Source: a virus | Virus record (IMG/VR): IMGVR_UViG_3300032132_000001 | Coordinates: 42,573-106,572 of that record | Strand: one strand, 5' to 3' | Length of the DNA: 64,000 bases | Shown here: positions 3,365 through 47,107 of the stretch, piece after piece | How positions within the stretch are numbered: position 1 is the first letter of the stretch | Layout of the letters: each line of letters starts with the position of its first letter | Notes under the pieces: model-generated | What the model was told of the DNA's origin: nothing | The model's database searches: none | What the model saw: the letters and a program-made list of their open reading frames with translations, nothing else | Made by a program: the position numbers and the translations under genes

Positions 3365-3839
3365 AAGCGATCACCTTGTCCGAACACTCAGGGTCAGATA
3401 GGGAGATCTCCTCTCGCTCTTGGATGTCAAGAGTAGGGTTGGTGCCATTCCAGTATCTAGCCTTCTTTTGCCCAGGCTTGACGTGGAGAGCAAGGATATT
3501 CCAGGTTCCATCTTTCTCGATCAGCCGGAACCCTACAGATGGATGGTCTTTGAGCCAGTTGGGGTGGTTGATTAGTTCTTTGTCCGCAACCACATAGTGC
3601 CATTCCCCTTCCTTCTTGGTGACCCAGAGCCACCTGAGGTGAGGATAAGCTTCCTCGATCTTCTCACGGAGATCGGTCATATAGTCGGAGATAATTGGGT
3701 TTGGATGTAGCATTGTGGGTCCAATTGTAATTATGTCATCCCAACAGATGAAGGGGCCTGCATGCCTTACCCCTGTCTTGAGGAATGGAACATCTAGCCT
3801 GCACCCGTCACAGATGCGTCCCAACATGCCACGGGTCAT
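3342..3839 (-). CDS. hypothetical protein; 14-mer CCGTGGCATGTTGG overlaps its start (alternative start MLGRICDG)
   Basis: track ORF; motif at 3821-3834. Confidence 0.5.
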   Translation of the reverse strand: MTRGMLGRICDGCRLDVPFLKTGVRHAGPFICWDDIITIGPTMLHPNPIISDYMTDLREKIEEAYPHLRWLWVTKKEGEWHYVVADKELINHPNWLKDHPSVGFRLIEKDGTWNILALHVKPGQKKARYWNGTNPTLDIQEREEISLSDPECSDKVIAFAGKIDA

Positions 3840-4126
3840 AGGCGTTGGGCTATGAAGTCCAGCACTTCTTGTTTTCTTGGCCCATGGATGACTTGATGTT
3901 TCAACTTTCTGGTCCAGGTGGGCGTCAAGATCTGAGCAACCACTGGTTCGTCGTATCGTCGCCCCTTCTTATCTCTAAGGTGGCAGACGTACTCGAAATC
4001 AGACTCAGCCGGGAGGGCCAGTCTGATACAGTTCAGTTGTGTATTGGGGTTGCTTAGATCTTCTTTAGTCAGCGGGCGGTTATTTTCTTCTCCGCCTGCG
4101 ATCCCAATCAACTCAAACATCATCAT
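3836..4126 (-). CDS. hypothetical protein
   Basis: track ORF MMMFELIG..., ATGA-type overlap with next gene. Confidence 0.45.
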   Translation of the reverse strand: MMMFELIGIAGGEENNRPLTKEDLSNPNTQLNCIRLALPAESDFEYVCHLRDKKGRRYDEPVVAQILTPTWTRKLKHQVIHGPRKQEVLDFIAQRL

Positions 4127-4131
4127 CCCCC

Positions 4132-4208
4132 TGGTACGCCCGGCAGGATTCGAACCTGCAACCTACGCCTTAGGAGGGCGTCGCTCTATCCAGTTGAGCT
4201 ACGAGCGC
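4132..4208 (-). tRNA. tRNA-Arg (anticodon CCT), CCA encoded
   Basis: cloverleaf GCGCTCGTAGCTCAACTGGATAGAGC...; anticodon stem ACGCC/GGCGT, loop CTCCTAA. Confidence 0.85.
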
Positions 4209-4209
4209 T

Positions 4210-4707
4210 TCAGTATTTAGATACCGACTCATCTTGTTCGGTTGGACCCTCGTTTGTGCAATCGAGGAGTTCTCTTTTCTTTTCTTCGATGACCTTCTTC
4301 AGAGTCGGACCTGCCATCCTCTCCACGGTGGAGGTGAGGATGCGCACCGCACGCTCAAGACGCAAGTTGCTGTCAGTGAGAAGCTTGTTGTCTTCTCTCA
4401 TGTTAGCAACCTCTTCCCTGAGCCCTCGCACTTCCACTTGCAAGCCCGTCATCATTTCAGAACCGGGCTTCAACGCAACTGGTTCAACGTCGTTCGGGTC
4501 TATAGGGGCGAAGTGCGCATGTGGGTTCCTCTTGATGACCAATGGATAGCCATGGCATGAGTTACCCTCTTTCACCAGGCCCCACCCATGCTTACCCATC
4601 CAGTGCCACAAGTCTCCAGTGGACACCTCGTGCGGCTTGGCTTCCATAAAACCGTGGGGGATGGAAATATGCTGCATGCCATGCGCTGTGTGGCGTAATA
4701 CTTCCAT
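4210..4707 (-). CDS. hypothetical protein with C-terminal coiled-coil
   Basis: 165-aa track ORF ending 1 nt from tRNA-Arg. Confidence 0.5.
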   Translation of the reverse strand: MEVLRHTAHGMQHISIPHGFMEAKPHEVSTGDLWHWMGKHGWGLVKEGNSCHGYPLVIKRNPHAHFAPIDPNDVEPVALKPGSEMMTGLQVEVRGLREEVANMREDNKLLTDSNLRLERAVRILTSTVERMAGPTLKKVIEEKKRELLDCTNEGPTEQDESVSKY

Positions 4708-4961
4708 CAGACGTACCTCTTATCATGCTTGTCGTATGCTTTGTTCAGTTCGTCCCATCCCAGGAGAACTGTCCCTATATTTGGCGGGGTAAAAGCGGTG
4801 CAGTTGCCACAAACGGCAGGTCCGCACTTCTTCCACTCTCCGTGGATTTGTACTTCGAACTGGAAGGTCCACCCTCTACTGTGGTCGGCAGAAGGTATCT
4901 TATGTAGGTTTCGGACTATGAATATCCCGACAGTGTATGGACCTTCTAATTTGTTGGTCAC
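4707..4961 (-). CDS. hypothetical protein
   Basis: track ORF. Confidence 0.4.
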   Translation of the reverse strand: MTNKLEGPYTVGIFIVRNLHKIPSADHSRGWTFQFEVQIHGEWKKCGPAVCGNCTAFTPPNIGTVLLGWDELNKAYDKHDKRYV

Positions 4962-8200: not shown

Positions 8201-8904
8201 TTTCCATATACCCTTCGAACGAAGTCCTCCACGAACGGTCCGATCTTATCGCTGTTGCGGTGGACTTCAAACTCGTCTAGCTTGATCGTATTTTTCTGGA
8301 TTGTAGTTTCCAGATCTGTGGAAATCTCATGCTGCCCTTGGACAACAGCTGTTTCTAAGAATTCGATTTTCACTGTGTCCCTGATCGTAGACTTGGAATC
8401 AAGATAGGCTTGCCCCATAGTCCCAGGATGAGAATACCAGATCAGAGGCATAGTCATGACCGAGATCTTCTCATCTTCGATCTGATTGACAGGAGTCATA
8501 GTCTGGAGACCCATGGCGAGCTTGAACCTCTCAATAGTCTTCTCTGCCTTTGGGAAAAGAAGACATACCAGCTGGCCTAGATGCTCATAGAGGTGGAATT
8601 CGAACCACTCGGCTGGCTTGTTTTCAGACCAGTACCGAATGTGATCTACAATCGGACCGGCATGTGAATGCACGATAACCGGATTTGAGGTGTTAGTTGC
8701 CTCATCTAGCATCCAGATGAGCGCATCACATTGTGTCAGCATCTCGTGCTTGTCTAGATCTGCTTTCTGTAGCTCCTCCTCTGAGAGAAGGTGGCCAGAT
8801 TCCCCCACTAGAAGCGGGACATAGGAGATGCAGACGTATTTTCCCTCAGGCATCGAACACTTCCTGAAATGGGCCGATGAACTGCTTATCATCGGAGGTG
8901 TCAA
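8197..8904 (-). CDS. hypothetical protein (possible hydrolase)
   Basis: track ORF; VIVHSHAGPIV segment. Confidence 0.4.
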   Translation of the reverse strand: MTPPMISSSSAHFRKCSMPEGKYVCISYVPLLVGESGHLLSEEELQKADLDKHEMLTQCDALIWMLDEATNTSNPVIVHSHAGPIVDHIRYWSENKPAEWFEFHLYEHLGQLVCLLFPKAEKTIERFKLAMGLQTMTPVNQIEDEKISVMTMPLIWYSHPGTMGQAYLDSKSTIRDTVKIEFLETAVVQGQHEISTDLETTIQKNTIKLDEFEVHRNSDKIGPFVEDFVRRVYGK

Positions 8905-9679
8905 GGATTGCGAAGATCACGTCGTGGAATGCACCATCGAACTCGCCGGTAAGGAACTCGTGGAACCATTGGGCTACATCGGCCCCGTTGTTTCCAAAGA
9001 CGCCGCACCCCCATGCACCAAGAACTAGCTGGTCCTGGCCCTTATGGACCGCAAGGGTAAGCATCTTTCGCATTCGCTCTTGCATGACCGGATCGGCTTG
9101 GTCCAGCAAGCTTTCATCCAGCGACCCCTTGTTCACCGCTGGGGTCGTCAGATAGTTGAAGTTCCTTGGGGCGATCAATTGGTCATAATCGTTCCTGAAT
9201 GTTGGAACTTCAGGAGAGAAGATCATATGATCGCTGTACAGTCTGCTCTCTGTACGATTGAAGTCGTACATCTCTTTGTGAACAGTTAGTGTGGGGTAGA
9301 GCGCAGAACCGCGCGCCAGACACTCTTCCTGCGCTTGCGCGCCACGGATGAACCCACCACCTGGATGCGTACCAGATGCGAAGTTCAAAATCATGATCTC
9401 TGCATCTTCGCCATGTCTTTCAGATAGGCGATAGGCAGCAGAGAAAGAAGATTCGTTCACCACTTGGAATTGTGTGTCGTAAGGCATCGGCTGGTCACCC
9501 AACATGCCACGCAAGTCCACTAATGTCTCAGGTCCAAGGAGCTGAGACGAATCGGTGGCCCACTCTATCGCATCTTGGATGTCATGTACCTCACCATTCA
9601 TATCCTTGTATTTTCCTTGGATGATGATGGTGAGAGTCTCTTGAGCGATTTTGGCCAACTTTCTACGTTGTTTTGTCAT
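8846..9679 (-). CDS. bacterial-type poly(ADP-ribose) glycohydrolase (PARG/DUF2263 macrodomain)
   Basis: LNFASGTHPGGGFIRGAQAQEE carries the GGG-X7-QEE PARG signature. Confidence 0.75.
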   Translation of the reverse strand: MTKQRRKLAKIAQETLTIIIQGKYKDMNGEVHDIQDAIEWATDSSQLLGPETLVDLRGMLGDQPMPYDTQFQVVNESSFSAAYRLSERHGEDAEIMILNFASGTHPGGGFIRGAQAQEECLARGSALYPTLTVHKEMYDFNRTESRLYSDHMIFSPEVPTFRNDYDQLIAPRNFNYLTTPAVNKGSLDESLLDQADPVMQERMRKMLTLAVHKGQDQLVLGAWGCGVFGNNGADVAQWFHEFLTGEFDGAFHDVIFAILDTSDDKQFIGPFQEVFDA

Positions 9680-9693
9680 TTGATCTCCTTTAA

Positions 9694-12296: not shown

Positions 12297-12386
12297 ATGG
12301 TTCCCGTTTATGAGCCCGAAGGCTAAATTAAGTACCTTACCTTTCCCTGCCCCGCCATGCTATGCCTAACCGTGCAACGCCACAAG

Positions 12387-12473: not shown

Positions 12474-12560
12474 TTCAACATGCCACGGCTCAGATCCTCA
12501 CCTCACCTTGCCGTTCCGAGCCGGGCCCTACCTAACCGAACCGCAACTTACCATACCACA

Positions 12561-12984: not shown

Positions 12985-13080
12985 AGCCTTGTATCGTTTT
13001 GATGACCATTATGGTTTCCTTGCCGCACCTGTCCATGCCGAGCTACAACTAACCCCACCGGGCCGGACCGTACCATATGG

Positions 13081-13154: not shown

Positions 13155-13225
13155 AACAACCTTGCCTTTCCGTACCATTCCCATCCATGCCTCACCGCAC
13201 CTAGACGAGCCGTACCAAGCCAAAA

Positions 13226-13308: not shown

Positions 13309-13566
13309 CTAACAGGTGGACTTCGTTCCGTTCACGTTGATGCAATCTACAACTTCACACTCTTCTAGAAGTGCAACATCGGTATCTTCGACTCGGACCG
13401 ATACGATGCCCACTAGATCGAGGAAGTGATGCTTGTAGATTGGGATCGCTTTGTCATCTGCAAAAGCGAGAAACCTCTCCAGGTTGCGTCGGTTCAGTTC
13501 CTTCACCACTGTCTTATCCGGTGCTGATTCTACTCTCAGGTTGACCAGATAGTTGTACTCACTCAT
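13309..13566 (-). CDS. hypothetical protein
   Basis: track ORF trimmed to MSEYNYL start (ATG 13564-13566) preceded by GGAGAGGAGAGG. Confidence 0.4.
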   Translation of the reverse strand: MSEYNYLVNLRVESAPDKTVVKELNRRNLERFLAFADDKAIPIYKHHFLDLVGIVSVRVEDTDVALLEECEVVDCINVNGTKSTC

Positions 13567-13630
13567 CCTTGCCTCTCCTCTCCATGCGGCGCACCGCCTG
13601 TCCATGCTGCGCCTGACCAGGCCACGAAGG

Positions 13631-16428: not shown

Positions 16429-16881
16429 CTAGTCGTCGCTCCCAACATGCCACGGCTGGATTGTGAGCCGAAGCTTTCCGGCGACTTCAGTGTCAACCGG
16501 GCCGAGCAACGCAGAGACAGCAGCGAGCAGCCCCTCTTTCATATCGCTCACCGACAGTGATTTCGGGTCTGACAGCTCCCTTGCATGAACCACGATGGTG
16601 TCACGGCCTGATGGATGGCCGACAAAGAACGCACCATAGTCTGGAGTCAACAGGAAGTTGATCTCAGCGCGCTGCCCAGGCAGGGCGTTGGGGAAGAGGC
16701 GAGCCCACACTGCAGTGTACTCTGGAATGAAGTGGAGTACGAATTCGGTTATCTCCATCTCCTCGCACAAACCCTCAAGAATCTTCTTCAGTTCGACAGC
16801 TTTGTCGTTATTCTTGACGTTGTGTGGAGAGAGATAGGTTTGGATGTTCTGTGCTGGGTCTAGTTTGGTTTTTCGTCCCAT
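16429..16881 (-). CDS. hypothetical protein; 14-mer motif forms its last codons (PWHVGSDD)
   Basis: track ORF. Confidence 0.45.
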   Translation of the reverse strand: MGRKTKLDPAQNIQTYLSPHNVKNNDKAVELKKILEGLCEEMEITEFVLHFIPEYTAVWARLFPNALPGQRAEINFLLTPDYGAFFVGHPSGRDTIVVHARELSDPKSLSVSDMKEGLLAAVSALLGPVDTEVAGKLRLTIQPWHVGSDD

Positions 16882-18926: not shown

Positions 18927-19376
18927 AGGTGTACTCCTTCTAAAGTCCTTGCTGGTACGAATGCTCGCCCAGCGTTTCCCAAAGTGCACAATTCGAAATA
19001 CGAGCCCTTTGGGATTATTGCGGCACAGGGCCGCTCCAACATGGCACGGAACTAAAGCTCTTTCCCGGTGAATAGAACAGGTAGCACCGTCCAGATTCTC
19101 CATCTCTGGTGCGGATCCTGGGTCAACGAGGAGGGAAAGAGCTTTAGTAGGGTGGGGAGCCATCACAGGTTTCGCATTTAGAGTGCGGCCTGCTTGCACA
19201 GACGTCCAGAATCTGAACCGTTACGCTGCTCGCAGCTTTGTCTCAAAACGGATTGCTCCGAGAAGAGAGCCCACAATGATGGCTCCCCGTGGGGAGGCGC
19301 GTTCGGGGTTCCCGCTTTCTTTTGGGTACTTCCTATATCCAGCGGCAGTCCTACTAGCACCTCCCCGTGACATCAA

Positions 19377-21317: not shown

Positions 21318-21923
21318 AGTCTCCAGTCTCCAAAAGGCGGGCTCGTCATTCCGTTTTGAATACGAGCAGCGGCTAGGAAATTTTCCTAGCCGAATCGGGC
21401 GGTACACACAGCATCAGAGAGCGTCCACTATCCCACTTGATGCCATATTGAATAAAATGACCACCCAGGTTTACGGGGTTTACGAAAGTCACCACTCCCT
21501 GGGTACCGATCGGGATCGGGTCTGGGTCATCGCGCATCGAGGTCATTTCGATGCGATCTCCTACTTGGAACATTCGGCCTCCAACATGCCACAGCTAATT
21601 GAGCAGCAATTGCTCGATCTCTTTGTGCAACTTGGGGTGCAATTTTGGATCGTTCCGGAGGATTTGCCACAAGAGGGCCTTTGGGACCTCGACGGTCTTC
21701 GATTTCCGCTTGCGATCCCGCTCTCGCTCAACAGCTTCGTCGTTCAGTCTCACCAGCGTCTGTAAATCGTGCATTAGTCCTTACCTCTCCTTACCTCTCC
21801 GCGCCAGTCCGAGCCTTGCGGTGCCTGGACTATCCAAACCATGCCGCGCCCTGCCCTTCTGAATACAAAGGCGGGGAGGTTTTACCCTCCCCGCCTCGCG
21901 GCACTTACGTACCGTTGCGGTTT

Positions 21924-23596: not shown

Positions 23597-23815
23597 TTAT
23601 TTCTTCCGATATGTGATGCGACCCTTAGTCAAGTCATACGGTGATAGCTCAACCGTTACCTGATCACCAGGGAGCACCTTGATGTAGTTCTTGCGCATCT
23701 TGCCTGAGAGGTGGCACATAACCACATTGCCGCCCTCCAACATGACACGGAACCGCGTGTTAGGTAACGCCTCGGTCACCTCGCCTTCTACGACAATCGG
23801 TTCTTCTTTAGCCAC
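23597..23815 (-). CDS. infA: translation initiation factor IF-1
   Basis: 72 aa near full-length match to bacterial IF1 ([23 protein letters not shown]...[34 protein letters not shown]). Confidence 0.9.
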
Positions 23816-27656: not shown

Positions 27657-29020
27657 TTCAACTCCTTCTTAGCCCATTCCATGGCCGATTCTTGGTCAGC
27701 GAAGGCTCCGTCCATCTGAGCTTCGTACGCTTTCTTCAGAAATACGCCAAGCTCTTTACTAGGCTCCATCAGCCCAGCCTCGATCAGATCACGGCCGTTG
27801 AGGATTCGCTTCGCGCCTTCATTGAGCACGCGCTTCTCACTTGCGATCTCAAGCATCCGAAGGCAGTTCTCCGACTTCCCACGAGGAAGAGGGGGGCGAC
27901 CAGAGTGGTCAGCTTCACACAGCCGTGCAAGCTCTACGATGCTCGCCGGCTCCAAACGCTTGGCAAGACGACGGACAGCTCTCGACGTAGCCGCTTGGTT
28001 GTGCGCCATGTGGTTCCCGACCATGGGCAGGATCTTATCCTTGTACTTCTTGTGACACCCAATTGAGTCCAGGAACTCTTCTGCGATAGGCACACCACCA
28101 CGCTCATGACCACGTGATCTCCACCTGCCATCTTCGAACTTGGTGTACTTTGCCTTGCCGACGTCATGGCACAGAGCGGACAGCACCAACATGCCACGAT
28201 CTTCCACATCAAGCTCGTCACGGATGGCGATTTCTGCTGCGGCATCGACCACGAACTTGGTATGAGTCCAAGCGCAGCCTTCAGGATGCCACTCGGGATC
28301 CTGAGTCACTCCGATCAGAGCGGTGAGCTGCGGGTAGAGATCGAGCCAGCAGGTGTCCTCCAGGAAGACCAGGCCAGAGCTTGGTTTGATGGACTTTGTT
28401 GCCCATTTCCACCACTCTTCCCACACTCGCTCAACAGGAAGGTCTTTGTACTCATCCTTCAGCGTGTTGCAGAGATGCGACGTGTCTGCCCAGACCGCCA
28501 TGTCAAATCGCCCTGTGAACTGCATCCCTCGCAGCACACGAAGAGGATCTTCGGCGAAAGCTGGAGATGTGTGGCGGAGGAGACCGTACTCGATATCCTT
28601 CAGCCCTTTGAAGAAGTCCAGTGTCTCGCCGGTCAGTGGATCGAAGGCTAGGGCATTCATGGTGAAGTCCCTGCGAGACGCCGCTTCCTCCGGTGTCATC
28701 GTCGGGTCGGGGTCCACCATGAAGCCCTTATGCCCACGCCCTCGCTTGCTCTCTCGTCGGGGAAGAGAGACATCGAACTCAACGCCACCTTCCTTGTACT
28801 TGAGTACGCCGAAGCTCTTGCCTACCGCATCGACCTTGCCCTTAGATTCCAGGAGTTCTTGGAGCTTATCGGGGCTCATGCCGTAGACTTCGACGTCGAT
28901 GTCCTTCCAGTCCTTGTTTCCCATCTGGGAATCTCGGACGGCACCGCCCACAACCAGGACACGGGCAGCGCCGTTCTCGGTCAGGTACCGAGCTAGTTCC
29001 TTGATCTTTTTCATGTCCAT
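27653..29020 (-). CDS. cca: tRNA nucleotidyltransferase (CCA-adding enzyme), class II head domain plus HD domain
   Basis: VVGGAVRD...DIDVEV head motifs, RRDFTMNA, HD..GK; start moved to MDMKK (ATG 29018-29020) after GAGGTG. Confidence 0.8.
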   Translation of the reverse strand: MDMKKIKELARYLTENGAARVLVVGGAVRDSQMGNKDWKDIDVEVYGMSPDKLQELLESKGKVDAVGKSFGVLKYKEGGVEFDVSLPRRESKRGRGHKGFMVDPDPTMTPEEAASRRDFTMNALAFDPLTGETLDFFKGLKDIEYGLLRHTSPAFAEDPLRVLRGMQFTGRFDMAVWADTSHLCNTLKDEYKDLPVERVWEEWWKWATKSIKPSSGLVFLEDTCWLDLYPQLTALIGVTQDPEWHPEGCAWTHTKFVVDAAAEIAIRDELDVEDRGMLVLSALCHDVGKAKYTKFEDGRWRSRGHERGGVPIAEEFLDSIGCHKKYKDKILPMVGNHMAHNQAATSRAVRRLAKRLEPASIVELARLCEADHSGRPPLPRGKSENCLRMLEIASEKRVLNEGAKRILNGRDLIEAGLMEPSKELGVFLKKAYEAQMDGAFADQESAMEWAKKELK

Positions 29021-29028
29021 GTTCACCT

Positions 29029-30485: not shown

Positions 30486-30855
30486 CCTCGCCTCCCCATA
30501 GGAGATTCTCTACAATGTCGCCGAAATCGTTTCTCATGATGTCACAATCAACGATGGGCACACCATATTCTTCCAGTAACGCCTTCTGCTTGCCCCGCCC
30601 AGACGGGTTGTTGGAACACAGCAAAACTGGAATACTTAGCTCGACCAGGAATTTCTCAGCCACCAACATGCCACTCATCAGCGGCATATCGTGATCAAGA
30701 ATGATCAGGTCCCAAGGGTACGGCACCCTACGGAGGTAGAAGTCACACTGCTCGTCGCCATGGGCGAAAACCAGCGTCAAGTATCTCCGCTCCAGAAGGT
30801 GCCGTATCTTGGTGAACCGGATCGGCTGGTCGTCGATCCAGAGCACATGTTTCAT
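30469..30855 (-). CDS. stand-alone CheY-like receiver (REC) domain protein
   Basis: VLWIDDQ..., phospho-acceptor-like ILDHDMPLMSG, LLCS, conserved Lys region. Confidence 0.6.
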   Translation of the reverse strand: MKHVLWIDDQPIRFTKIRHLLERRYLTLVFAHGDEQCDFYLRRVPYPWDLIILDHDMPLMSGMLVAEKFLVELSIPVLLCSNNPSGRGKQKALLEEYGVPIVDCDIMRNDFGDIVENLLWGGEDGKGS

Positions 30856-31795: not shown

Positions 31796-31903
31796 TTAGT
31801 CCTCTTATATGCCGAGTAATTTTGCTCGGCTGTTTCCATTGAGATACGGCCAGGAGAGAGGGAGAGCCGCCCAACATGGCACGGCTCCCCTCTCCATGCC
31901 CTC

Positions 31904-33100: not shown

Positions 33101-33367
33101 CTAGTAGTAAGTGTGTCGCCATTCCTGACCACACCTACGACACCCGTGGGCTTCACCACCAGTGTCAGGCGTGCACCATGAATCGACGCACTCTACGTCG
33201 TGCCCTTTCCATCGACACGTCAAGTCCAAGACGCTAGACTTGACATAGGACCAGAGCCAGCTGAGGAAGATCACCGCTGTGTGCGGCGGATCCTTACCTT
33301 CTTGCCAGGCGTACTGATGCTCCGCCTGCTCCCAACTCCGCCAATCTTGACGGATCGCTTCCAACAT
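33101..33367 (-). CDS. Cys/His/Trp-rich hypothetical protein; start codon lies inside the 14-mer motif
   Basis: track ORF. Confidence 0.4.
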   Translation of the reverse strand: MLEAIRQDWRSWEQAEHQYAWQEGKDPPHTAVIFLSWLWSYVKSSVLDLTCRWKGHDVECVDSWCTPDTGGEAHGCRRCGQEWRHTYY

Positions 33368-33378
33368 GCCACACCTCG

Positions 33379-34797: not shown

Positions 34798-34970
34798 CAG
34801 CTCATCTCGATCTGAGCAACGATGGCATACGAAAGCTTATTGCGCTCCATCGCATAATCTTCGGCATATTTGTCGAGGATTTGGGAGGGAGCGCGCACGC
34901 CTGGTTTATATTCCAGGGCCACGCATGGATCTCCTTCCCAACAGATGATAAACATCTTCTTATCGCTCAT
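34797..34970 (-). CDS. possible small protein MSDKKMFIICWEGDPCVALEYKPG...
   Basis: 57-codon ORF read by hand filling an apparent gap. Confidence 0.3.
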   Translation of the reverse strand: MSDKKMFIICWEGDPCVALEYKPGVRAPSQILDKYAEDYAMERNKLSYAIVAQIEMS

Positions 34971-35266
34971 TACCAGACATCCTCGCTAAACAGACCAACA
35001 TGTGCGTTCATTTGGTCTTCTTTCTTCACTTGGCCGGCAAGGCGAGCCAGCCGTGCAGCTGGCTTTCTGCGGACGAAGTCGCCGGATTCGGTCAGGAACC
35101 CCTGTTCCCTGTTGATCGGGGGTTTAATCCCTTTCTCCGTCACCATCATGTGAACGATGTCGGCGTGACGAGCAGGAGCAGGAAGGGAATACACCACGCC
35201 ATCCTTCCACAGGATCGCTGCGGCGACGATCTTACCGTAGTCTTTTCTCATTGGCCCTCCCAACAT
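34970..35266 (-). CDS. hypothetical protein; ATG is the ATG of the 14-mer motif (MLGGPM...)
   Basis: track ORF. Confidence 0.45.
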   Translation of the reverse strand: MLGGPMRKDYGKIVAAAILWKDGVVYSLPAPARHADIVHMMVTEKGIKPPINREQGFLTESGDFVRRKPAARLARLAGQVKKEDQMNAHVGLFSEDVW

Positions 35267-35272
35267 GACACG

Positions 35273-35827
35273 CTATCCTTTCATGATGACGTGTTCGATG
35301 AGCCCGCCGACGAGACCGGCTCTCTCCCGCTCTTCCTTCTTGGCCGCTCGGGTCAGTTCAGCAATGTTGTGCCGAACCGCATCCCAGTGGTCGTAGACTT
35401 TCATGATCTCAGCCTGGTCAGGGTGAGTGAACGTCAACTGGGTGTTAGTACCGTAGCAGGCCCCTCTATTGACCTCAACCTTATCGGCTTCCGCTTGGAT
35501 CTCAGGCGCCACGTGTGGGCCCCAATCTTCGCAATAGCAACGCATGGCAAGCTCGTGTGAAGGGCCCATGATCCTGGCGCAGCGCTTCAGCTCCCAGATC
35601 GCGTACCCTTCCATCAGCCTGAGGAAATCGAGAGCCTTGGAGGGGTCCGGATGGGCGACTTGGAGGAACTGATGGAGCGGCCCACGGCTGAACCAACCCA
35701 TCTGTATCCTCAGCCCCTCTTCTTTTCCCTCGTTGGCAACGAACATGTCCGTCTCGTTGCCACTGCCGAAGTCTCCCTCAACTTCGTGCCAGTTGCCGTT
35801 GTTGTCGCTGTAGGAGTAAAAGATCAT
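35273..35827 (-). CDS. hypothetical protein
   Basis: track ORF. Confidence 0.45.
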   Translation of the reverse strand: MIFYSYSDNNGNWHEVEGDFGSGNETDMFVANEGKEEGLRIQMGWFSRGPLHQFLQVAHPDPSKALDFLRLMEGYAIWELKRCARIMGPSHELAMRCYCEDWGPHVAPEIQAEADKVEVNRGACYGTNTQLTFTHPDQAEIMKVYDHWDAVRHNIAELTRAAKKEERERAGLVGGLIEHVIMKG

Positions 35828-36021
35828 TCCATCCTCATCAGCATGCTGTAGATGTCCTCTACCGACAGCTTCTTCAGTTCCTTTCGCTTCTCACCAGGGA
35901 AGTGTGCCTTCCCCGGCTCACTCAGGATCATGGCTATCGCCTTCTGACGGAACGCCGTGAGGCATTCCTGTCGGTACAGCTCCACGGCTTCGTTTAGTTG
36001 ATCTGCGAGCCAGACGTCCAT
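35824..36021 (-). CDS. hypothetical protein
   Basis: track ORF. Confidence 0.4.
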   Translation of the reverse strand: MDVWLADQLNEAVELYRQECLTAFRQKAIAMILSEPGKAHFPGEKRKELKKLSVEDIYSMLMRME

Positions 36022-37178
36022 TAAGCATCTTCTCCTTCGTCGTGGAACGCGATGCCGCCGGTCGGCTTCAACATCTTCCAGATCTGCTCCTCGATCATCC
36101 GTCCGTCCAGCAAGCTGAACATGAGATGAGGATGGGTGCAGTTTTCCTTGATGTAGAGCGCTTGATCCTTCCGAGTGTCGGTCGGACCCTGAGGGACCTT
36201 CTTGATCTCGTTGGACGCCGCGAACCGGATCCGGTGAGCCGCCTCGTACAAGCCCATCGCCGTCTCAGTGAGCCAGTGATGGAACTCGTCCGGAACATCG
36301 ACGCCCAGGAGGATGTCCTCCTTGACCGTACCACCAGTCTTGAGGACTTCCCAGATCCGGCGAGGGGTCAGACCACAGAGGAGCTTGTGGCGGATCTTGT
36401 ACCACTCGAACTTGATCTTGATCCGCTGACCCGACGAGAACTTGAGGACGAAGCCCTCTCGGTTCTCTTCGTCCATCGCGTCGAGCTGAGCCGGGGTGAG
36501 GTGTTCGAGATCGTACCGCTTGCAGATCTCGAATAGCTGCTCGTTCTCCTGGTCTAGCCCAGTTGTACCATGCTGGATGCTCGTTTCACCCCAGGTGACG
36601 AATGTCGCCAGCTGCTCATAGGGGACTTCTGAACCGGACTCGGTGTGAATCACGGTCAGGAGGGTGAGCTTAGTGTTCGGACCGTAGTCAACCACGATCT
36701 GAGGCCGACCACCTTCCTTGGCGTAGATCACCTCGAAAAGGTAGGTGTAGTCGTGATGGAAAACGTCTTGAGGAAGAGCGTGGGCCGGGCAACAAACCCG
36801 GAGCAATTCTTCCCGACCGATCACCGATTGGTCCGAAGTGAAGCTACCTCGGGTCGCCGTCACCAGCTCACCCTTGTAGACGCAGGCGATGAACAGCGAA
36901 CCGTCCATCTTCTCCATCACCTCGAAGGTCTCGTTGGGTGCTTCCACCTCACCGAGGTTGAAGAACTTGCCGAAAGGACGTCCAACGATCTCCTTCGGCT
37001 TCCCGGTCTTCTCGGGGTCGGTCGTGATGAGACCGCGACACGTCTTGGTCGCCGCGTTCCACACCCGATCGAACTGCGTCTTTGGCGTGTAGTTGTGAAT
37101 GAGGAGAGGGAGGGTCGGATGGACCTGGGTCTTGATAAACCCTTCCTCTATCATCTTGTCAATCAGTTCCCAGTCCAT
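36021..37178 (-). CDS. ATP-dependent RNA ligase, T4 Rnl1 (gp63) family
   Basis: CRGLIT..GRPFGKFFNLGE...MEKMDGSL...EGFVLK...KIKFEWY align with Rnl1 CRGIMF..RPMEKFFNL..KEDGSL..EGYVAV..KIKSDWY; start MDWELIDK at 37176-37178 after GGAG. Confidence 0.8.
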   Translation of the reverse strand: MDWELIDKMIEEGFIKTQVHPTLPLLIHNYTPKTQFDRVWNAATKTCRGLITTDPEKTGKPKEIVGRPFGKFFNLGEVEAPNETFEVMEKMDGSLFIACVYKGELVTATRGSFTSDQSVIGREELLRVCCPAHALPQDVFHHDYTYLFEVIYAKEGGRPQIVVDYGPNTKLTLLTVIHTESGSEVPYEQLATFVTWGETSIQHGTTGLDQENEQLFEICKRYDLEHLTPAQLDAMDEENREGFVLKFSSGQRIKIKFEWYKIRHKLLCGLTPRRIWEVLKTGGTVKEDILLGVDVPDEFHHWLTETAMGLYEAAHRIRFAASNEIKKVPQGPTDTRKDQALYIKENCTHPHLMFSLLDGRMIEEQIWKMLKPTGGIAFHDEGEDA

Positions 37179-37180: not shown

Positions 37181-37441
37181 TTATTTCTCCACGTGCTCGC
37201 GTTCTGCGAGAATGCCCTTGATCAGGTCGTACCTCTCTTGCCAGCTCCGATAGCGGGCAGCATCTCCTTCGACCCAATCTTCATACGCAGCTGCACCACA
37301 ACCACAACTGCACTTTGAGGAAGAACTTCTGAGTGCCCTGACTTTCTTGAAGACGGCAAGAAGGCGCTTGGTAGGCAACTTCCTCAACTGCTCTTCCTTC
37401 AAGTCCAATGCGCCTTGGGGTTCCATGGTCGTCTCCAACAT
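37181..37441 (-). CDS. small hypothetical protein (start at motif ATG MLETTMEPQ, or 37426)
   Basis: track ORF trimmed. Confidence 0.4.
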   Translation of the reverse strand: MLETTMEPQGALDLKEEQLRKLPTKRLLAVFKKVRALRSSSSKCSCGCGAAAYEDWVEGDAARYRSWQERYDLIKGILAEREHVEK

Positions 37442-37452
37442 GGCACGGCTAT

Positions 37453-38133
37453 CTAGCCGTGCGTTCTCTTCATCTTCGCCAGCGGCTCGCTGCCATGCTT
37501 CATCGGGTCGTTGAAGTTGGTGGTGTGTCCACCTTCTGGGTTGCGATCCCAAGCGATGCAGTGCCGGATGACGTCCCGAAGGTCGCACATCTTCTTGGCC
37601 TCGTCGGGGACTTCGGGACTGGCGATGCCATAGAAGGCTGATCCGAGAGTGGGGAAGACAATTCCCTTCAGCTCTGCAAGCAGATCATCGACTCGACGCC
37701 AATCGATAGCGCCGAACGAATCACCCCGAAGCATGCTTCGGTGACGCATGACTGCTGCGATTTCACCGAGCTGTCCCATCATCAACCGATAGTACAAGTC
37801 CAACGCCCGATTGATGACGTCACCCTGTGTGCCGGTGATGGTGAGCTGGTATTCGCCCACTTCTTTTGCCTTTCTCCGTGTTCTTGCCTTGGGCGAGCAA
37901 CCCCAAGCCTCTGGAGTCAGCAGTGCGAACTCCATGTTGTCGAAGACCTCATCTTCGACAACAGCCCTTTTCTCCCCGGTGGCGCGATTCTGGATCATCG
38001 CCTCACCACTGGTGATGTGCGATAGGACATCGTCCACACGCTCATCACCAGGTGGGATGTAGAACACACCATGAAGCAAGTGAGCAAGCAGCACTGATAC
38101 TTGTACTCTCTGCACCATCTTGGGTTCCGTCAT
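37453..38133 (-). CDS. hypothetical protein
   Basis: track ORF. Confidence 0.45.
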   Translation of the reverse strand: MTEPKMVQRVQVSVLLAHLLHGVFYIPPGDERVDDVLSHITSGEAMIQNRATGEKRAVVEDEVFDNMEFALLTPEAWGCSPKARTRRKAKEVGEYQLTITGTQGDVINRALDLYYRLMMGQLGEIAAVMRHRSMLRGDSFGAIDWRRVDDLLAELKGIVFPTLGSAFYGIASPEVPDEAKKMCDLRDVIRHCIAWDRNPEGGHTTNFNDPMKHGSEPLAKMKRTHG

Positions 38134-39068: not shown

Positions 39069-39266
39069 GGGAACTCCATGTTCTTAGGCGAAGAAGTCCT
39101 ACTGGAGGCGGGACCTCCCCGCCCAACCTAGCTTCCCCTGCTCAAGCTTGAGCGGGGATTTGTGTCCCACAACATGTGGGAGCACAACATTCGGCCGTGA
39201 GACCGAATGCTGTTGACATTGACACAACGCCGATCGACGAGTGCCTGTCAACATGCCACGAATGGC

Positions 39267-39342
39267 TGGCGGGTCATACGGGATTTGAACCCGCAACACA
39301 CGGTTTTAGAGACCGTTGCTCTACCAATTGAGCTAATGACCC
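39267..39342 (-). tRNA. amber-suppressor tRNA (anticodon CTA, reads UAG), class I, CCA encoded
   Basis: GGGTCATTAGCTCAATTGGTAGAGCAACGGTCTCTAAAACCGTGTGTTGCGGGTTCAAATCCCGTATGACCCGCCA; perfect 5-bp anticodon stem ACGGT/ACCGT, loop CTCTAAA. Confidence 0.75.
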
Positions 39343-39658
39343 AGGAGGAGTGGTGGACCTTTCTCATCAACCGAAGGTGAAGAGCCTAGGTTCACCCCCG
39401 ACGCGGATACTCGATTAAGTGGACCCCGTAGCAACGACGACACACCCCCACCACTCCTTGACTAAGAAGAAAGAAGAGCCGACCTTCAGGTGAGAAGACG
39501 TATAACAAACTTGTCCCCCTTTACCGGTCACTCACCCCGGCGATCAACCCAGAGCGGATCAGGAACTTAGGCGGGCTCGGACGTCTCCCTCGGCTCTTCC
39601 TTCCAATACGCCGCAGCCCGACCCCCATACAGCAGGGTCGGGCATTGGCTAGGAGTTG

Positions 39659-40528: not shown

Positions 40529-40670
40529 GTCATTCCCCTGGTAGGGACTTCTCGGTTACAACGCCCACAGTTGGGCAATTGATTCATTGTTCGGTTGACC
40601 AGGGTTGGACACAGCACGCTTCCAACAGCTTGTATCCCGTCCCAACATGGGACGGGCACAAGCCAAGGAA

Positions 40671-40898: not shown

Positions 40899-41167
40899 GG
40901 CCGGGAGTACGGCTGTGCCGGATCGTATTCCGGATTGGGTTCGGGGATTCGAAGCTCACCGATCCTCTCGTACGCCGTGTCCTCGACCAAGCACGACAGC
41001 CGGTGGATCTGCCAGCTGAGGTAGTCGAACGGCCTGGTGAGCCAGTACGACGCCTCTTGGACGAGCCGGCTGGCCCGATCCAGAGTGAGGACGATCAGTT
41101 GCCAGAACAGGCGGTACCGCTGCTTGCTGGGGTTCATTGAACCCTCCTTGTAGGGGTTTCGTTCCAA
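40889..41167 (-). CDS. hypothetical protein (likely start MNPSKQRYR at 41137)
   Basis: track ORF; AAGGAGGG RBS. Confidence 0.4.
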   Translation of the reverse strand: MERNPYKEGSMNPSKQRYRLFWQLIVLTLDRASRLVQEASYWLTRPFDYLSWQIHRLSCLVEDTAYERIGELRIPEPNPEYDPAQPYSRPWK

Positions 41168-41216
41168 CAGGGCTTATCCCGCTCCCTGGTGGGAGCGGGC
41201 ATCACCCTTGAGATTC

Positions 41217-41609
41217 TTAGCCGGCGAGAACCTCATCGATCTCACGTTCCAGCTCCTTCTGAGCCAGCACCGCCGCGTAGACCTCGCTGTGGTACTCGTC
41301 CCGCAGCACCATCGGTGCGTCCGGGTTGAGTGCCAGCTCGATCTTGCTGACGATGTGGTCGTGGGGATCCTCGCCGAAGAGATCGTCGGCGATAGCCTTG
41401 GCGGTGAAGAGGCGCATCTCGTCCACCGGGACGGTCCCGTTGACCGGGAACTCACGGCGCTGGACCGTCTTCCCCTTGGCCCTGACCTCGATGCCGACGA
41501 GATCGCCGTAGGTCGTCTTGGGTGACTGACACGAGAACCTCTCGGGCGTGATCAGAGCGATCACGTAGCCGAGGAATCGCATGCCGGCACCAGTCTTGGG
41601 GTTACGCAT
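41217..41609 (-). CDS. hypothetical protein; 9-codon upstream ORF beginning at motif ATG
   Basis: track ORF. Confidence 0.45.
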   Translation of the reverse strand: MRNPKTGAGMRFLGYVIALITPERFSCQSPKTTYGDLVGIEVRAKGKTVQRREFPVNGTVPVDEMRLFTAKAIADDLFGEDPHDHIVSKIELALNPDAPMVLRDEYHSEVYAAVLAQKELEREIDEVLAG

Positions 41610-41743
41610 AGAACAAACACTCCTGGGTCTAAGTTACGTGCAGATGGACACAACGCCCAACATGTCACGCTAATGGGACCAAGGCAAGCCTTGGCCTCGC
41701 CACCTGTGTGAGTTAGGAGCGAACACAGGATCGCTCGTCCAGA

Positions 41744-42058: not shown

Positions 42059-42254
42059 GGTCACCTCCAACAGGCTAAATCCCGCCCCCTGATGGGGGCG
42101 GGCAGATCAGTTTAGCCGTTGATCCATGACTTGGCGGATACGATCTCTCTTCTTTCTGATCTCACCGCCTTGCTTGAGCGCCTTGCGGATCGCCTCCTCA
42201 TCGTAGAGACAGAGGAGGAGACCGCTCGGCATCGCAACCACGATCATTCTCATC

Positions 42255-42928: not shown

Positions 42929-43006
42929 CCTGGATTCCTCCTGTAGAGTCCTTTTCCAACAGGCTAAACCCCGTCCCAACATGGGACGGGCTTCAACCCT
43001 TGCCGA

Positions 43007-43663: not shown

Positions 43664-43723
43664 ACCCCCGGATAGAAAAGTTGTCAACTACGCGATGCCC
43701 GACCCAGGGGGTCGGGCAACACG

Positions 43724-43969
43724 CTACCGAGTGGGGGAGAGACCTCTCTTGGTCTTGGAGCCGTACTCCAGCTTGAAGTGCCTCTCCAGAGCCGAGCCCA
43801 GGAGGCACATCTCGTCGCCCCAGGAGGCATCCGTCTGCACGGACCGAGCTTCCAGCAGGGCCAACTTCACCTCTGCCAGGACCTTAGCCAGGTCCTTTTC
43901 CACCCAGGAGTGTCCTCCACGGACGAAGCGCGCCAGAATGCACGCCAGTTTCATCGCGTCGTCCATCAT
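43724..43969 (-). CDS. hypothetical protein
   Basis: track ORF. Confidence 0.4.
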   Translation of the reverse strand: MMDDAMKLACILARFVRGGHSWVEKDLAKVLAEVKLALLEARSVQTDASWGDEMCLLGSALERHFKLEYGSKTKRGLSPTR

Positions 43970-44043
43970 TCATCCTTCCGTTATAGAAGTGTTCCAACAG
44001 GCCATAGCCCGTCCCCAACATGGGACGGGCAATGACCTTACTG

Positions 44044-44250: not shown

Positions 44251-44251
44251 C

Positions 44252-44920
44252 TTAGACCCTCGTCAGCTTGGCGTCATCGGCGCTGGTGCCGGTGTACTGG
44301 TACGGCGACTTGTTGAAGCGGTACGGACCGTGGCCGAAAGCCCACGATTGCCGCTCCCAGAAGCCCTCGACCTCGTCCCAGAAGAGATCCGTCTGCACTT
44401 CCTTGCAGTACGCACCTTCCTGGTTGAGGATGAACATCGCCTTCACCGGGCCCTCGTAGACCACGCCGGGATGATTGAGATCGATCCACTTGGCGTTGTA
44501 GAGGATCTTGGCTCGCCACAGGTTGGTGTTGAACTCCCTGGCGATTTCCCTCGTGGCGATGCGGAACTGGCAGTCGATGCACGCCGTGTAGATCGACTCC
44601 CCGATCATCTGGAAGTATTCCACTTCCTTCCCGCAGCAGACGATCCGGCTTCCGGCCTGTAACTTCCACATCAGCTCGGAACGTTCGTCGTAGGCTCGGA
44701 GATCGGACTGTGTTGCACCGGGACCGCACACCCAGTCGTGCATATTACAGCCACCTGGGCCGTTACGGGGCTGAGCCGCCAGATCCTTCCGACCCTGTTG
44801 GAGCTTGTCCGCTATCTCGCCCACCCTGGACAGGTCCAACTGGTCCCGTCGCAACAGGTAATCGGGCATCGGACCCGTCCCCAGCACCCAGAGGATGAGT
44901 GCCATGCTTCTCTCGAACAT
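44252..44920 (-). CDS. hypothetical protein
   Basis: track ORF. Confidence 0.45.
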   Translation of the reverse strand: MFERSMALILWVLGTGPMPDYLLRRDQLDLSRVGEIADKLQQGRKDLAAQPRNGPGGCNMHDWVCGPGATQSDLRAYDERSELMWKLQAGSRIVCCGKEVEYFQMIGESIYTACIDCQFRIATREIAREFNTNLWRAKILYNAKWIDLNHPGVVYEGPVKAMFILNQEGAYCKEVQTDLFWDEVEGFWERQSWAFGHGPYRFNKSPYQYTGTSADDAKLTRV

Positions 44921-45006
44921 CTTTCATCTCCTTTGGATGAGTTCTGTGTCAACTACGCTAAACCCGATCCCGCCAACATGGCACGGGATCGGGCAAGCGC
45001 AACAGA

Positions 45007-45207
45007 TCAGATGAACTCGGGTACATCGGAGGGGTCAGGGAGTTGGATCCGCTGGGGATCGATGAGGAGGATCTTGTGGTCGATCTTCCTCTCTTTCTCC
45101 AGCTGAGCTTCCACGGCACACAGTCGGACGTGGAGGTAGATGATGACGCCACCGAGCACGGCGACCACCATCAGGAGGATCAGTTGATCCACGATTTTGA
45201 GCTTCAT
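45007..45207 (-). CDS. small membrane protein
   Basis: track ORF with TM helix. Confidence 0.4.
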   Translation of the reverse strand: MKLKIVDQLILLMVVAVLGGVIIYLHVRLCAVEAQLEKERKIDHKILLIDPQRIQLPDPSDVPEFI

Positions 45208-45404
45208 CCGGTCATCTCCAGACGGGGTTGGAGGTAGATGGGTTGAGTGATCTTGCCGGTCTTCCGGAGTTCAGCAACCTCCTTGATGATCTCAGAAGAT
45301 CTCAAGTCGATTTCCGGCTCGAAGAGGTTCCAGCACTTATCACTCAGCGGCCGGTCCTGGTCGGGATTCCTCAACCCCATGACCCATGGGACTTGTGCGT
45401 GCAT
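45204..45404 (-). CDS. hypothetical protein
   Basis: track ORF. Confidence 0.35.
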   Translation of the reverse strand: MHAQVPWVMGLRNPDQDRPLSDKCWNLFEPEIDLRSSEIIKEVAELRKTGKITQPIYLQPRLEMTG

Positions 45405-45881
45405 TTGCGATCTCCTTTCTTCGCAGTCGTGTCAACAGTCTGAAACCCGCCCCCGGAGGGGCGGGCTGCCTTTATCGGCAAATCAAACTATCGAGTCATC
45501 ACGCCTCCCTGACCTCACCGTCCTGCGCAGAAGGATGCTGGTCGCCAACTTAATGCTGCCCGTTCCACATCGCATGGAACGACACCAATCTGACACAGGA
45601 CGCAAGATCCGAAGAGAAGGTTCTAGTATTGTCAACTCCAAGAATCCCGTCCCCAACAAAGGGGACGGGCAGGAGAAGCCTACTTCCAGACGCCGATTGA
45701 CTGGAGGATGATGCTGGCGATCACGATCGGCCCATAAGCCAACGCCGCGTACAAGCAGTACACGGGAAGGATGGGGACCAACATCAGGTATGACAGGATA
45801 CGCATTCGCAACCTCGGTTCACTAGAGAGTTATCTCGGACAACAGCTCTTATCCCGCCCCCAGGAGAGGGCGGGCAATCTA

Positions 45882-46187
45882 TCACGGCGTTGGGGGAACG
45901 TGGAGCTTCTCTGCCTCTTTCTTCAGCAGGTCCAGCATCTGACCGTGCAGCTGCTGCCCCATCCTGGTCCCCTGCAGCACCTCCAAGCAGTTCACTTCGG
46001 GGGCACCCAGGAGGCGGTAGAGTCGGTTGAAGATCAGAGCAACTTCATCCGACTCGAAGTGCTCGACGCTGACGAGATAGTGGTCCAACCACTCCCACAG
46101 CTCCCGGGTTCCCTTCATCACCATCGTCCGTGCGAATTGCAGCCGCAGCGGCTCGTGGGTGAGAAGAGAGGTTAGTACCATTAGCAT
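45882..46187 (-). CDS. hypothetical protein
   Basis: track ORF. Confidence 0.4.
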   Translation of the reverse strand: MLMVLTSLLTHEPLRLQFARTMVMKGTRELWEWLDHYLVSVEHFESDEVALIFNRLYRLLGAPEVNCLEVLQGTRMGQQLHGQMLDLLKKEAEKLHVPPTP

Positions 46188-47107
46188 CTGCCCCTCCTGA
46201 GCAAAGAGATGTTGAGCTTCTTACTGATAGCTCTGTCAACAGCATAAAGCCCGCCCTCCAAAAAGGAGGGCGGGCCACCATTCACCTAAAAACAAGCACC
46301 CGCCACAGATTCATTATGGCAGCAGCTGTCCCCGTGGGCGGGCAATTGGGTGACAACCTTCACGCTGCAACTCTGGCGGTTCAAACCGCGTCGGTCTACA
46401 TGACGTCTCCTCGCTTTACGCTTAGGGTGCTAGTTGACAACTGGTTGAATCCCGACCCCATAAAGGAGTCGGGCGTTACCCATGTTAGACAGGTTGGATT
46501 TGGTGGGAAGTTGAATGTGTTTGGAGCTTATGGGGGAGGAGGGGGAGAGATCGGCCTCTCCGTCTTTTTCCTTGCCCTTCCCCGCTTGACAAGAGTCCAT
46601 TACAATACCTGACCACCGGTTGAGTACCAGGAAAGCAGGGAGAGCAAAGGAGAGGGCAGGAGAGCTGGTATCTTCGGGAACCCGAAAACCTCTGCGCGGG
46701 GCAATGGCTCCTATCTGTGACCTAATATTGAGCCTCGCACTGTCCCCCACTCTTATGCAAAAGGGGTCTACCCCTCTCTTCAGTGCACTCGTGTGATATT
46801 CGAGCACCCACTGAGTGTTGACAGTACATTGAGCTTCGCCCTTCTTCTCCACAGGATCCCTCATATCCCCAACATGACACGCGCATTCCTCCCTGGGGGA
46901 ACAATCTCAATGTGACCTAGTGGGCTAAGTCCCTAGTTGACTATTGCTCCACCCGTAAGGGCGTTAGTTAACAGGCACTTATCAGCGCCTTATCAACCTA
47001 ATATTGGAGGAGGGACTTGACACTAGACCGAGCAAACATTGACTCACCCACTCCTATATGAGCCCGGTTTGAGTCAGGTAGGGTCTGACTGACAATCTAT
47101 AGAAAAA

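Follow-up and report, generated by a model that had tools for sequence, protein, structure and literature searches.

What does a short sequence signal when it recurs again and again along one gene block of a huge phage genome, always in the same orientation? The question is raised by a 14-mer in a 64-kb stretch of DNA (positions 42,573 to 106,572 of the IMG/VR record IMGVR_UViG_3300032132_000001; hereafter, the window). We examined ~85 kb of the ~397-kb genome of this uncultivated phage, namely, the window and its flanking extensions. Up to 47.5 kb of the window the genes lie on the minus strand (the leftward block), and from 47.5 kb on we find plus-strand genes, lower in G+C and encoding mostly small paralogous proteins (the rightward block). 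The leftward block holds ten tRNAs, one of them a suppressor with the CTA anticodon, and encodes a CCA-adding enzyme, a T4 Rnl1-type RNA ligase, a Thg1-like enzyme, a PARG-like protein, PTH2, a SpoU methylase, a peptide deformylase and an IF-1 homologue. The results allow us to conclude that the 14-mer is a real regulatory signal, statistically overwhelming and conserved. As to its function, the best reading, which we hold tentatively, is a class-specific promoter or transcription signal made of a single block and read on DNA by phage-specific machinery.

In the gene sense, the consensus of the motif is s-C-G-T-G-s-C-A-T/c-G-T-T-G-G with purines after it. Its exact plus-strand form CCAACATGSCACGG was found in six copies vs. 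0 expected, and with up to two mismatches CCAACATGSCACGG gave 20 copies in the window (20/20 on the plus strand), compared to 0.65 ± 0.83 in shuffled sequences. The core CCAACATG occurs 19 times on the plus strand and never on the minus strand, while among the 8-mers of the leftward block none is more over-represented than CATGTTGG (gene sense; 19 copies vs. 0.6 expected, no reverse complement). A position weight matrix (PWM) scan clearly separated the 20 sites, scoring 18.2-25.8 bits, from the next best match at 11.6 bits, and nothing at or above 9 bits appeared in the opposite orientation or past 47 kb of the window. The shuffles, the score gap and the k-mer ranking thus exclude chance or a compositional artefact, just as the original prediction had claimed from the frequency of the motif. 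A coding repeat was also rejected, since the host proteins are unrelated to each other, as was a tandem array; the only dense match elsewhere (L059) turned out to be an unrelated 15-bp coding tandem repeat. The list of about 17 copies given originally proved right within 1-2 nt for 16 of them, but the one at 39166 is not a member of the set, and four copies deep inside genes (9499, 23737, 28186 and 30663) had been missed. A hairpin palindrome CTCCCACATGTTGTGGGAC at window 39150-39200 (minus strand) contains CATGTTG and has only this 7-nt core in common with the 14-mer.

When we walked 18 kb further leftward in the same genome, three more good copies and a degenerate one were found, ~4-5 kb apart, which brings the total to 23 of 23 in the gene sense and none in the opposite sense. 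No copy was seen in the 7 kb further right of the window, and the rightward block as a whole (47-71 kb) has none in either orientation, not even beside the minus-strand genes embedded there. Positions 3, 4, 7, 8 and 10-13 are invariant over the 23 copies, whereas any base may stand at position 6; at position 9, 21 copies have T and two have C, so that these two read ACG instead of ATG. The information content falls to background right outside the 14-mer, except for a weak “AG” before it and purines after it (~80% purine at positions +15/+16).

The positions of the copies are far from random (Table 1). Fifteen or sixteen of the 20 lie in non-coding DNA or at gene junctions, although non-coding DNA makes up only 13.8% of the block (P about 1e-9), so that the position bias suspected in the original prediction is borne out. 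Independent database gene calls agree with this picture at 13 sites. Three copies stand before tRNA genes, by 1 nt (tRNA-Leu) and by 27 nt (a tRNA-Met/Ile pair), or directly after one; the location beside tRNAs had been noted already and was seen at 12475 and 39248. The copies are spaced more regularly than expected (coefficient of variation 0.56 vs. 0.96 for random placement, P = 0.004), with an average density of one per ~2.5 kb that rises to one per ~1.5 kb near the block head. This over-regular spacing, the placement close to stop codons, the absence from the rightward block and the conservation in a relative were not part of the original prediction.

Conservation became apparent from a radical-SAM protein encoded beside the window, which has a 77%-identical homologue on a 4.3-kb JGI contig (L192; 3300009514, Ga0129284_10012428). 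The contig is syntenic with the phage, and the neighbouring proteins are only 45-58% identical. The DNA around its last gene has no blastn match, and the product of this gene is 45% identical to the phage orthologue. The contig retains CCGTGGCATGTTGG right after the TAG of the orthologous gene, where the phage has CCGTGGCACGTTGG 4 nt past the TAG. A 14-mer kept at an orthologous gene end whose flanks have diverged is a phylogenetic footprint. Other carriers of the motif did not emerge: exact scans of IMG/VR and a metagenome scan gave chance singletons only, as did the loci around homologues of the CCA enzyme, the 395-aa protein and the RNA ligase, and a distant jumbo phage sharing the radical-SAM gene; a literature search on the motif string returned nothing relevant. 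The gene content of L192 differs from that of L191 around the conserved anchors. The sole contig of the relative terminates exactly at the last base of the motif (L192, 4251-4264), which could be a coincidence, an assembly break at a repeat, or a physical DNA discontinuity.

Is the embedded ATG the functional part of the motif? We could verify that it is the first ATG of two open reading frames (ORFs), 33101-33367 and 34970-35266, whose starts agree with independent gene calls, that it is an in-frame alternative start at 3825-3827 and 37439-37441, and that it opens a 9-codon upstream ORF (uORF) ahead of 41217-41609, all as originally described. However, only one or two genes depend on the motif ATG for their start; at the other sites the ORF opened by it has just 4-29 codons, or a better start led by a Shine-Dalgarno (SD) sequence comes after it. 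Moreover, the two ACG copies and the orthologous site, where the phage and its relative differ by T/C, show that either base is accepted at position 9, so that the AUG itself is not essential, and an essential AUG was rejected. The proposed leaderless initiation at the embedded AUG is weakened by the same two genuine ACG copies, one of which reads ATG in its orthologous form.

The copies lying deep inside genes are instructive as well. There are four in the window and one in the extension, in unrelated genes, namely those for the PARG-like protein, the IF-1 homologue, the CCA enzyme and a receiver-domain protein, and, in the extension, a radical-SAM enzyme. All five carry the ATG in frame, reading (R/S/G)-(G/V)-M-L-(G/E/V), most probably because the other two frames would force peptides rich in W, C and H (P-W/C-H-V-G or V-A/P-C-W). 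The lone copy in another frame (16442, PWHVG) lies within the last 8 residues of its protein. Internal initiation at the in-frame ATGs was set aside, since this coding constraint, the avoidance of W/C/H codons, explains the frame. IF-1 sequences usually read ..FRVELENG.., and the phage homologue has ..FRVMLEGG.. where the motif sits; as the motif replaces the usual peptide, the comparison suggests that this site was selected at the nucleotide level. An internal promoter does no harm at such intragenic positions, and an RNA cleavage site does.

We also compared the motif with its RNA context. On folding, five of the 20 copies fall in the loops of strong GC-rich hairpins (31871, 40642, 42976, 44015 and 44973), in agreement with the original description, one forms a stem arm, and the rest have no consistent structure. 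The core CAUGUUG is single-stranded in all five hairpin contexts, and the CGTG 5′ half is conserved whether base-paired or free. Since the sequence is kept whatever the local RNA structure, a reader of duplex DNA is favoured. A common RNA hairpin or a known RNA family was rejected: the minimum-free-energy folds differ between sites, and in the Rfam search only tRNAs reached the gathering threshold, with nothing credible at E<=1. An intrinsic terminator was rejected too, as only 5/20 copies lie in a hairpin, none has a U-tract, and a terminator scan of 30-49 kb of the window missed them. Nor can the 14-mer be the −35 or −10 half of a sigma-70 promoter, being without a partner hexamer and without an AT-rich patch; a sigma-70 scan gave fewer sites than were found in shuffles. 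A start-associated sequence at fixed spacing was rejected on account of the variable distances, the five deep intragenic copies and the three before tRNAs.

According to the reading that we prefer, the 14-mer would be a cis-acting transcription signal read as double-stranded DNA. The proposed reader is an RNA polymerase, encoded or modified by the phage and dedicated to a single gene class, namely, the tRNA, RNA-repair and translation-auxiliary genes of the leftward block. The 14-mer would work as a compact single-block promoter placed directly after the stop codon of the preceding gene, with initiation inside the block or at its 3′ edge, e.g., at the GG of TTGG. All motif contexts are compatible with initiation at the 3′ edge; in that case the transcripts would have the SD sequences of 21581, 35260 and 37435 at their 5′ ends, and the five hairpin-loop copies would be terminator-promoter cassettes comparable to the PeSLs of T4-type phages. 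We infer from the sequence features recognition on DNA, initiation rather than blocking or pausing, and the position of the start site. Class-specific promoter sets are the commonest explanation for motifs of this kind and were ranked first. A tRNA of the jumbo phage 201phi2-1 is under the control of a class-specific middle promoter, and the temporal classes each have their own motif adjacent to the transcription start site (PMC11512511). The leftward block carries T4-type early genes (Rnl1-like ligase, Y05Q and Y16D), and the cassettes of a hairpin and a conserved box in the same region resemble, by analogy, the composite terminator/promoter PeSLs (PMC4122927). Of the roles proposed originally, a phage-specific promoter remains the single most likely, whereas its AUG-centred leaderless version is weakened.

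Several results speak against a promoter. There is no conserved partner element at −35/−10 spacing on either side of the motif, and no AT-rich melting patch follows it: the 7 nt past TTGG are only 20-30% A+T, only the ATGTT inside the motif is A+T-rich, and neither TAnnnT nor an AT-rich patch occurs 15-25 nt downstream. Among the window proteins, Pfam and PHROGs searches revealed no RNA polymerase subunit, sigma factor or clear DNA-binding regulator, the sole regulator-like match being a weak partial “transcriptional regulator” at 37453-38133; the precomputed Pfam matches of gene calls in the flanking loci list no polymerase or sigma factor either. Ten copies begin within −1 to 20 nt of the stop of the preceding gene (a hairpin arm occupies the gap where it is longer, 15-20 nt), and a signal for termination, roadblock or processing would be just as naturally placed there. 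The real start, in contrast, follows the motif at anything from −7 to ~180 nt: the distance is 4-8 nt in four sites, with the TTGGRGG tail serving also as the SD, about 45-52 nt in four, and 75-180 nt in five.

A roadblock formed by a DNA-bound protein would account for these features almost equally well. In Cluster A mycobacteriophages, stoperators are bound by L5 gp71 or the TipsytheTRex repressor, and by analogy a monomeric phage protein sitting on the asymmetric 14-bp sites may block or attenuate leftward elongation in an orientation-dependent manner, which could shut the leftward block off at a given stage of infection. At the sequence level, the defining descriptors of L5-type sites are matched point for point: asymmetry over 13-14 bp, more than 20 copies, orientation locked to transcription, and location mostly in very short intergenic spaces overlapping or abutting stops and starts (PMC9283540). 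The stop-proximity, the terminator-like hairpins and the over-regular spacing would suit a device that stops RNA polymerase, and the most upstream copy (46869) lies at the block head. We nevertheless consider such a roadblock unlikely. So far, stoperators have been described only in temperate Cluster A actinophages, in which their role is to silence the prophage, and they differ from the 14-mer in sequence, in phage type (a ~50-kb temperate siphovirus vs. a ~397-kb jumbo phage) and in the likely host phylum. No integrase or repressor was seen in the ~85 kb inspected, and of the two transcription blocks seen just one has the motif, while both arms of L5 contain stoperator sites. Somewhat less probable still is an element acting at the RNA level, a site for an endoribonuclease or an RNA-binding protein in the polycistronic transcript, which would separate cistrons, mature tRNA precursors or control the downstream ribosome-binding site. 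T4 RegB, which cleaves early mRNAs within GGAG Shine-Dalgarno sequences, and the T7 RNase III sites are precedents for intercistronic processing. The sense-strand orientation, the location at cistron boundaries right after stops and beside tRNA ends, the single-stranded CAUGUUG core in the hairpins, and the overlap with the next gene's SD in four sites all agree with such an element. It is difficult to reconcile, however, with the five deep coding copies, including that in the conserved IF-1 gene, where cleavage or binding would be damaging or have no target, with a CGTG half that is conserved though paired in some copies and free in others, with the highly variable distance to start codons, and with the lack of an Rfam match or a common structure. 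An RNA-processing site, also proposed originally, fits poorly with the copies in five coding sequences, while the originally proposed translational operator is weakened by the two ACG copies, by the small number of genes that depend on the motif ATG, by the variable start distance and by the same intragenic copies, where it would have no target.

We regard it as improbable that the 14-mer is a pause and loading site like ops, a non-template-strand motif that pauses RNA polymerase and recruits a processivity or antitermination factor, which would be loaded anew from place to place on its way through more than 65 kb of a single transcription unit. Such a site would be strand-specific and lie inside transcribed DNA both between and within genes, as the motif does; the regular spacing, denser near the unit start, and a length similar to that of the 12-nt ops element agree with it, and by inspection the motif fits the elemental pause consensus G(-10)...Y(-1)G(+1) if the pause is at T12/G13. 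On the other hand, the 14-mer has no sequence similarity to ops (by inspection, 6/12 positions in common with the consensus GGCGGTAGnnTG, including the pause-consensus G-10/T-1/G+1), no NusG/RfaH-family protein was found in the window, and operons with a known ops element have one or two of them, for the most part in the leader. Least of all do we expect a site acting on the DNA itself, either a strand-specific nick of the T5, phiKMV or LUZ24/tf type or a short recombination site bounding gene cassettes, for which the chances appear very slight. A 14-nt consensus specific for a single strand and repeated along the genome would be in line with this, as would the L192 end at the last base of the motif, the different gene content of L191 and L192 around the anchors, and the abundance of small ORFan cassettes in the motif region. 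Yet nick sites would not be expected to prefer intergenic, stop-proximal positions or to be confined to one transcription block, the Logan contigs of the same genome end in tRNA genes and not in motifs, and the L192 end is a single coincidence. In more general terms, the 14-mer may be no promoter but a DNA site, anchored to stop codons and acting in one orientation, where a protein of the phage halts, pauses or nicks; to this reading we give a low probability. If this were true, a jumbo phage would use stoperator- or ops-like control along a transcription unit of more than 65 kb, the loop-nested copies would combine intrinsic and factor-dependent termination at five places, and polar transcription roadblocks would reach well beyond temperate actinophages.

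To return to the promoter reading, the phage class promoters known so far (T7-type, T4 late TATAAATA, and those of phiKZ/201phi2-1) resemble the 14-mer in being discrete blocks of ~8-23 bp, present in tens of copies, co-directional, located in intergenic regions or at gene 3′ ends, and restricted to one temporal or functional class; they drive tRNA genes too, as the 14-mer would. They are unrelated to it in sequence, and unlike them the 14-mer has no AT-rich initiation region, is anchored to the upstream stop and not at a set distance from the start, and has five copies in hairpin loops. Like the PeSLs and PmSLs of T4-type phages, it can be coupled directly, as a conserved box, to a GC-rich stem-loop (in other cassettes of the region the box is TTGACA/TTGGAA-like) and lies between small ORFan genes in a plastic early-type region with T4-type early genes nearby. 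It differs in being inside the loop rather than beside the stem-loop, and most of its copies have no stem-loop at all. Conserved, oriented intergenic repeats of 13-21 nt are known also as the Cluster K start-associated sequences (SAS) and the repeats of T1-like phages (TLS). Their function is translation-related or undefined, and they sometimes include the SD. The SAS are reportedly found a few bp ahead of the start codon, with little variation in this short distance; the 14-mer differs from them in its distance of −7 to ~180 nt and in its copies inside genes and before tRNAs.

The 14-mer is a newly found element of a known type in a poorly explored kind of phage. Large sets of tRNA and translation genes are a feature of huge uncultivated phages, and their expression is essentially unexplored; here a sharply defined, conserved and class-specific signal marks off the transcription units of a ~397-kb genome. 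Relatives can be screened for this signal, which can also serve as a bait for the polymerase or regulator that recognizes it. Should the 14-mer prove to act as a roadblock or pause site, such a mechanism would extend beyond the one mycobacteriophage group from which it has been described.

Table 1. Copies of the 14-mer in the window, with their immediate surroundings.
Sequence	Position	Strand	Context	Further features
CCGTGGCATGTTGG	3821..3834	-	1 nt past upstream TGA (ATGA overlap), in first codons of gene 3342-3839	
GCGTGGCATGTTGG	9499..9512	-	within PARG-like gene 8846-9679, ATG in frame (LRG[M]LG)	
CCGTGGCATGTTGA	12475..12488	-	between two tRNA-Leu genes, ends 1 nt before 5′ end of tRNA-Leu(GAG)	
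CCGTGGCATGTTGG	16442..16455	-	final 8 codons of gene 16429-16881, read P-W-H-V-G	followed by hairpin and ~150-nt non-coding stretch
CCGTGCCATGTTGG	19036..19049	-	non-coding stretch	followed by small hairpin GCGGCcctgtGCCGC
CTGTGGCATGTTGG	21581..21594	-	fills 21-nt gap, 0 nt after TAG stop	TTGGAGG tail is SD of ATG 7 nt downstream
CCGTGTCATGTTGG	23737..23750	-	within IF-1 homologue gene 23597-23815, ATG in frame (FRV[M]LEGG)	
TCGTGGCATGTTGG	28186..28199	-	within CCA-adding enzyme gene 27653-29113, ATG in frame	
GAGTGGCATGTTGG	30663..30676	-	within receiver-domain gene 30469-30855, ATG in frame	
CCGTGCCATGTTGG	31871..31884	-	loop of long GC-rich hairpin ~31855-31895	19 nt past TAA stop, 75 nt ahead of next start
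GTGTGGCATGTTGG	33361..33374	-	4 nt past TAG	ATG is called start of gene 33101-33367
GCGTGTCATGTTGG	35260..35273	-	overlaps TAG of gene 35273-35827; ATG is called start of 34970-35266	second in-frame ATG with GGGAGG SD 8 nt past motif
CCGTGCCATGTTGG	37435..37448	-	4 nt past TAG; 5′ half is 3′ arm of hairpin GCACGGctagatagCCGTGC	called start of next gene (37426) 8 nt downstream
TCGTGGCATGTTGA	39248..39261	-	5 nt past 3′ end of CTA suppressor tRNA	followed by 180-nt structured leader
CCGTCCCATGTTGG	40642..40655	-	CATGTTG is 7-nt loop of hairpin 40636-40656	15 nt past TAG stop; followed by CTGTTGGAA
GCGTGACATGTTGG	41657..41670	-	directly after hairpin GGCCAAGGcttgCCTTGGTCC; 47 nt before start of gene 41217-41609	ATG opens 9-codon uORF
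CCGTCCCATGTTGG	42976..42989	-	loop of hairpin 42970-42990	17 nt past TAG stop, 47 nt before peptide-deformylase start
CCGTCCCATGTTGG	44015..44028	-	loop of hairpin 44007-44030	15 nt past TAG of 68-aa gene
CCGTGCCATGTTGG	44973..44986	-	TGCCATGTTGG is 11-nt loop of hairpin 44963-44993	20 nt past TGA stop, 52 nt before next start
GCGTGTCATGTTGG	46869..46882	-	most upstream copy, head of leftward block	in ~1-kb mostly non-coding stretch following strong terminator 47106-47138

The cassettes mentioned above deserve a description of their own. Between 39600 and 46300 (minus strand) we found eleven to twelve intergenic cassettes with one layout: the stop codon is followed by a GC-rich hairpin (GCCCGNCCC / GGGNCGGGC), then by a spacer of 7-8 nt that frequently reads TTTAGCC or ATAAGCC, and finally by a box, (C)TGTTGGAA or (T)AGTTGACA, with an SD and ATG only 20-27 nt past it. 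Examples are located at 46234-46290, 45430-45470, 44947-44993, 43682-43725, 42954-42990, 42062-42100, 41162-41200, 40620-40656 and 39606-39645. The core TGTTGG is common to these cassettes and the 14-mer. When these 11-12 cassettes (39.6-46.3 kb) were tested as PeSLs, the stem-loop and the TTGACA/TTGGAA box were present, and there was no −10 element at N17. Since the genes start so close to the TTGACA-like box, it cannot be a sigma-70 −35 element for them. Another kind of intergenic element was seen on the minus strand in 1-25 kb of the block, between tRNAs and upstream of genes: G-rich stretches of 50-90 nt with GG every ~5-8 nt (e.g., GGTACGGTCCGGCCCGGTGGGG...GGCAAGG), which often end in AGGTAAGGA(A)CT right before the ATG. 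They were located at ~25510-25606, 24400-24477, 21775-21923, 13560-13630, 13155-13225, 12985-13077, 12490-12560, 12330-12386 and 1684-1731.

As to the source of the window, its 395-aa protein is 100% identical to one database protein, and two Logan contigs of the run SRR9663116 are 100% identical to the window and extend both its sides. The contigs _16096 and _49590 of this run belong to the phage genome. No close relative was found in the annotated phage collection or IMG/VR, and a homology search with the CCA enzyme gave only bacterial-type relatives, with an identity of at most 55%. Small T4-type early proteins (Pfam T4_Y16D and Phage_T4_Y05Q) are encoded near the PARG-like gene, along with a PNK-like kinase/phosphatase, the Rnl1-type RNA ligase and a WGR-PARP protein (window 34970-35266, 37181-37426 and 36021-37178; L191 14340-15626 and 18636-19568). 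As a whole, this toolkit for RNA repair and ADP-ribosylation hints at a T4-like ancestry of the leftward block. The suppressor-type tRNA at 39267-39342 (minus strand; anticodon CTA, labelled “Pyl” by ARAGORN) has a 316-nt non-coding region before it. TAG is the commonest stop of the leftward block and frequently abuts the 14-mer directly, and these TAG-abutting copies and the CTA suppressor tRNA may be relevant to stop-codon recoding late in infection.

The rightward block (window 47541-64000, plus strand, and L189 to ~71 kb) encodes ~25 paralogous proteins of ~100 aa that share a D(P/S)(D/S/E)(F/Y)(N/S/K)P(D/T/A)GI motif. Its G+C is 46-50%, and it has almost no recognizable SD sequences, whereas the leftward block has clear AGGAGG sites. 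Where the two blocks diverge, the DNA is extremely rich in G+C and contains long runs of G and C (ccccgccgggggcgcgcccccgcccg...; 47541-47700). The first leftward gene, 47164-47523, encodes 119 aa without a family match and is followed by the strong canonical intrinsic terminator at 47106-47138, the sole such one in the scanned 30-49 kb. Next comes ~1 kb of probably non-coding DNA (46188-47160), which has several hairpins and starts with the most upstream copy of the 14-mer; the database gene caller passed over a 144-aa ORF in it in favour of a dubious one on the opposite strand. This region may hold a non-coding RNA or a long leader.

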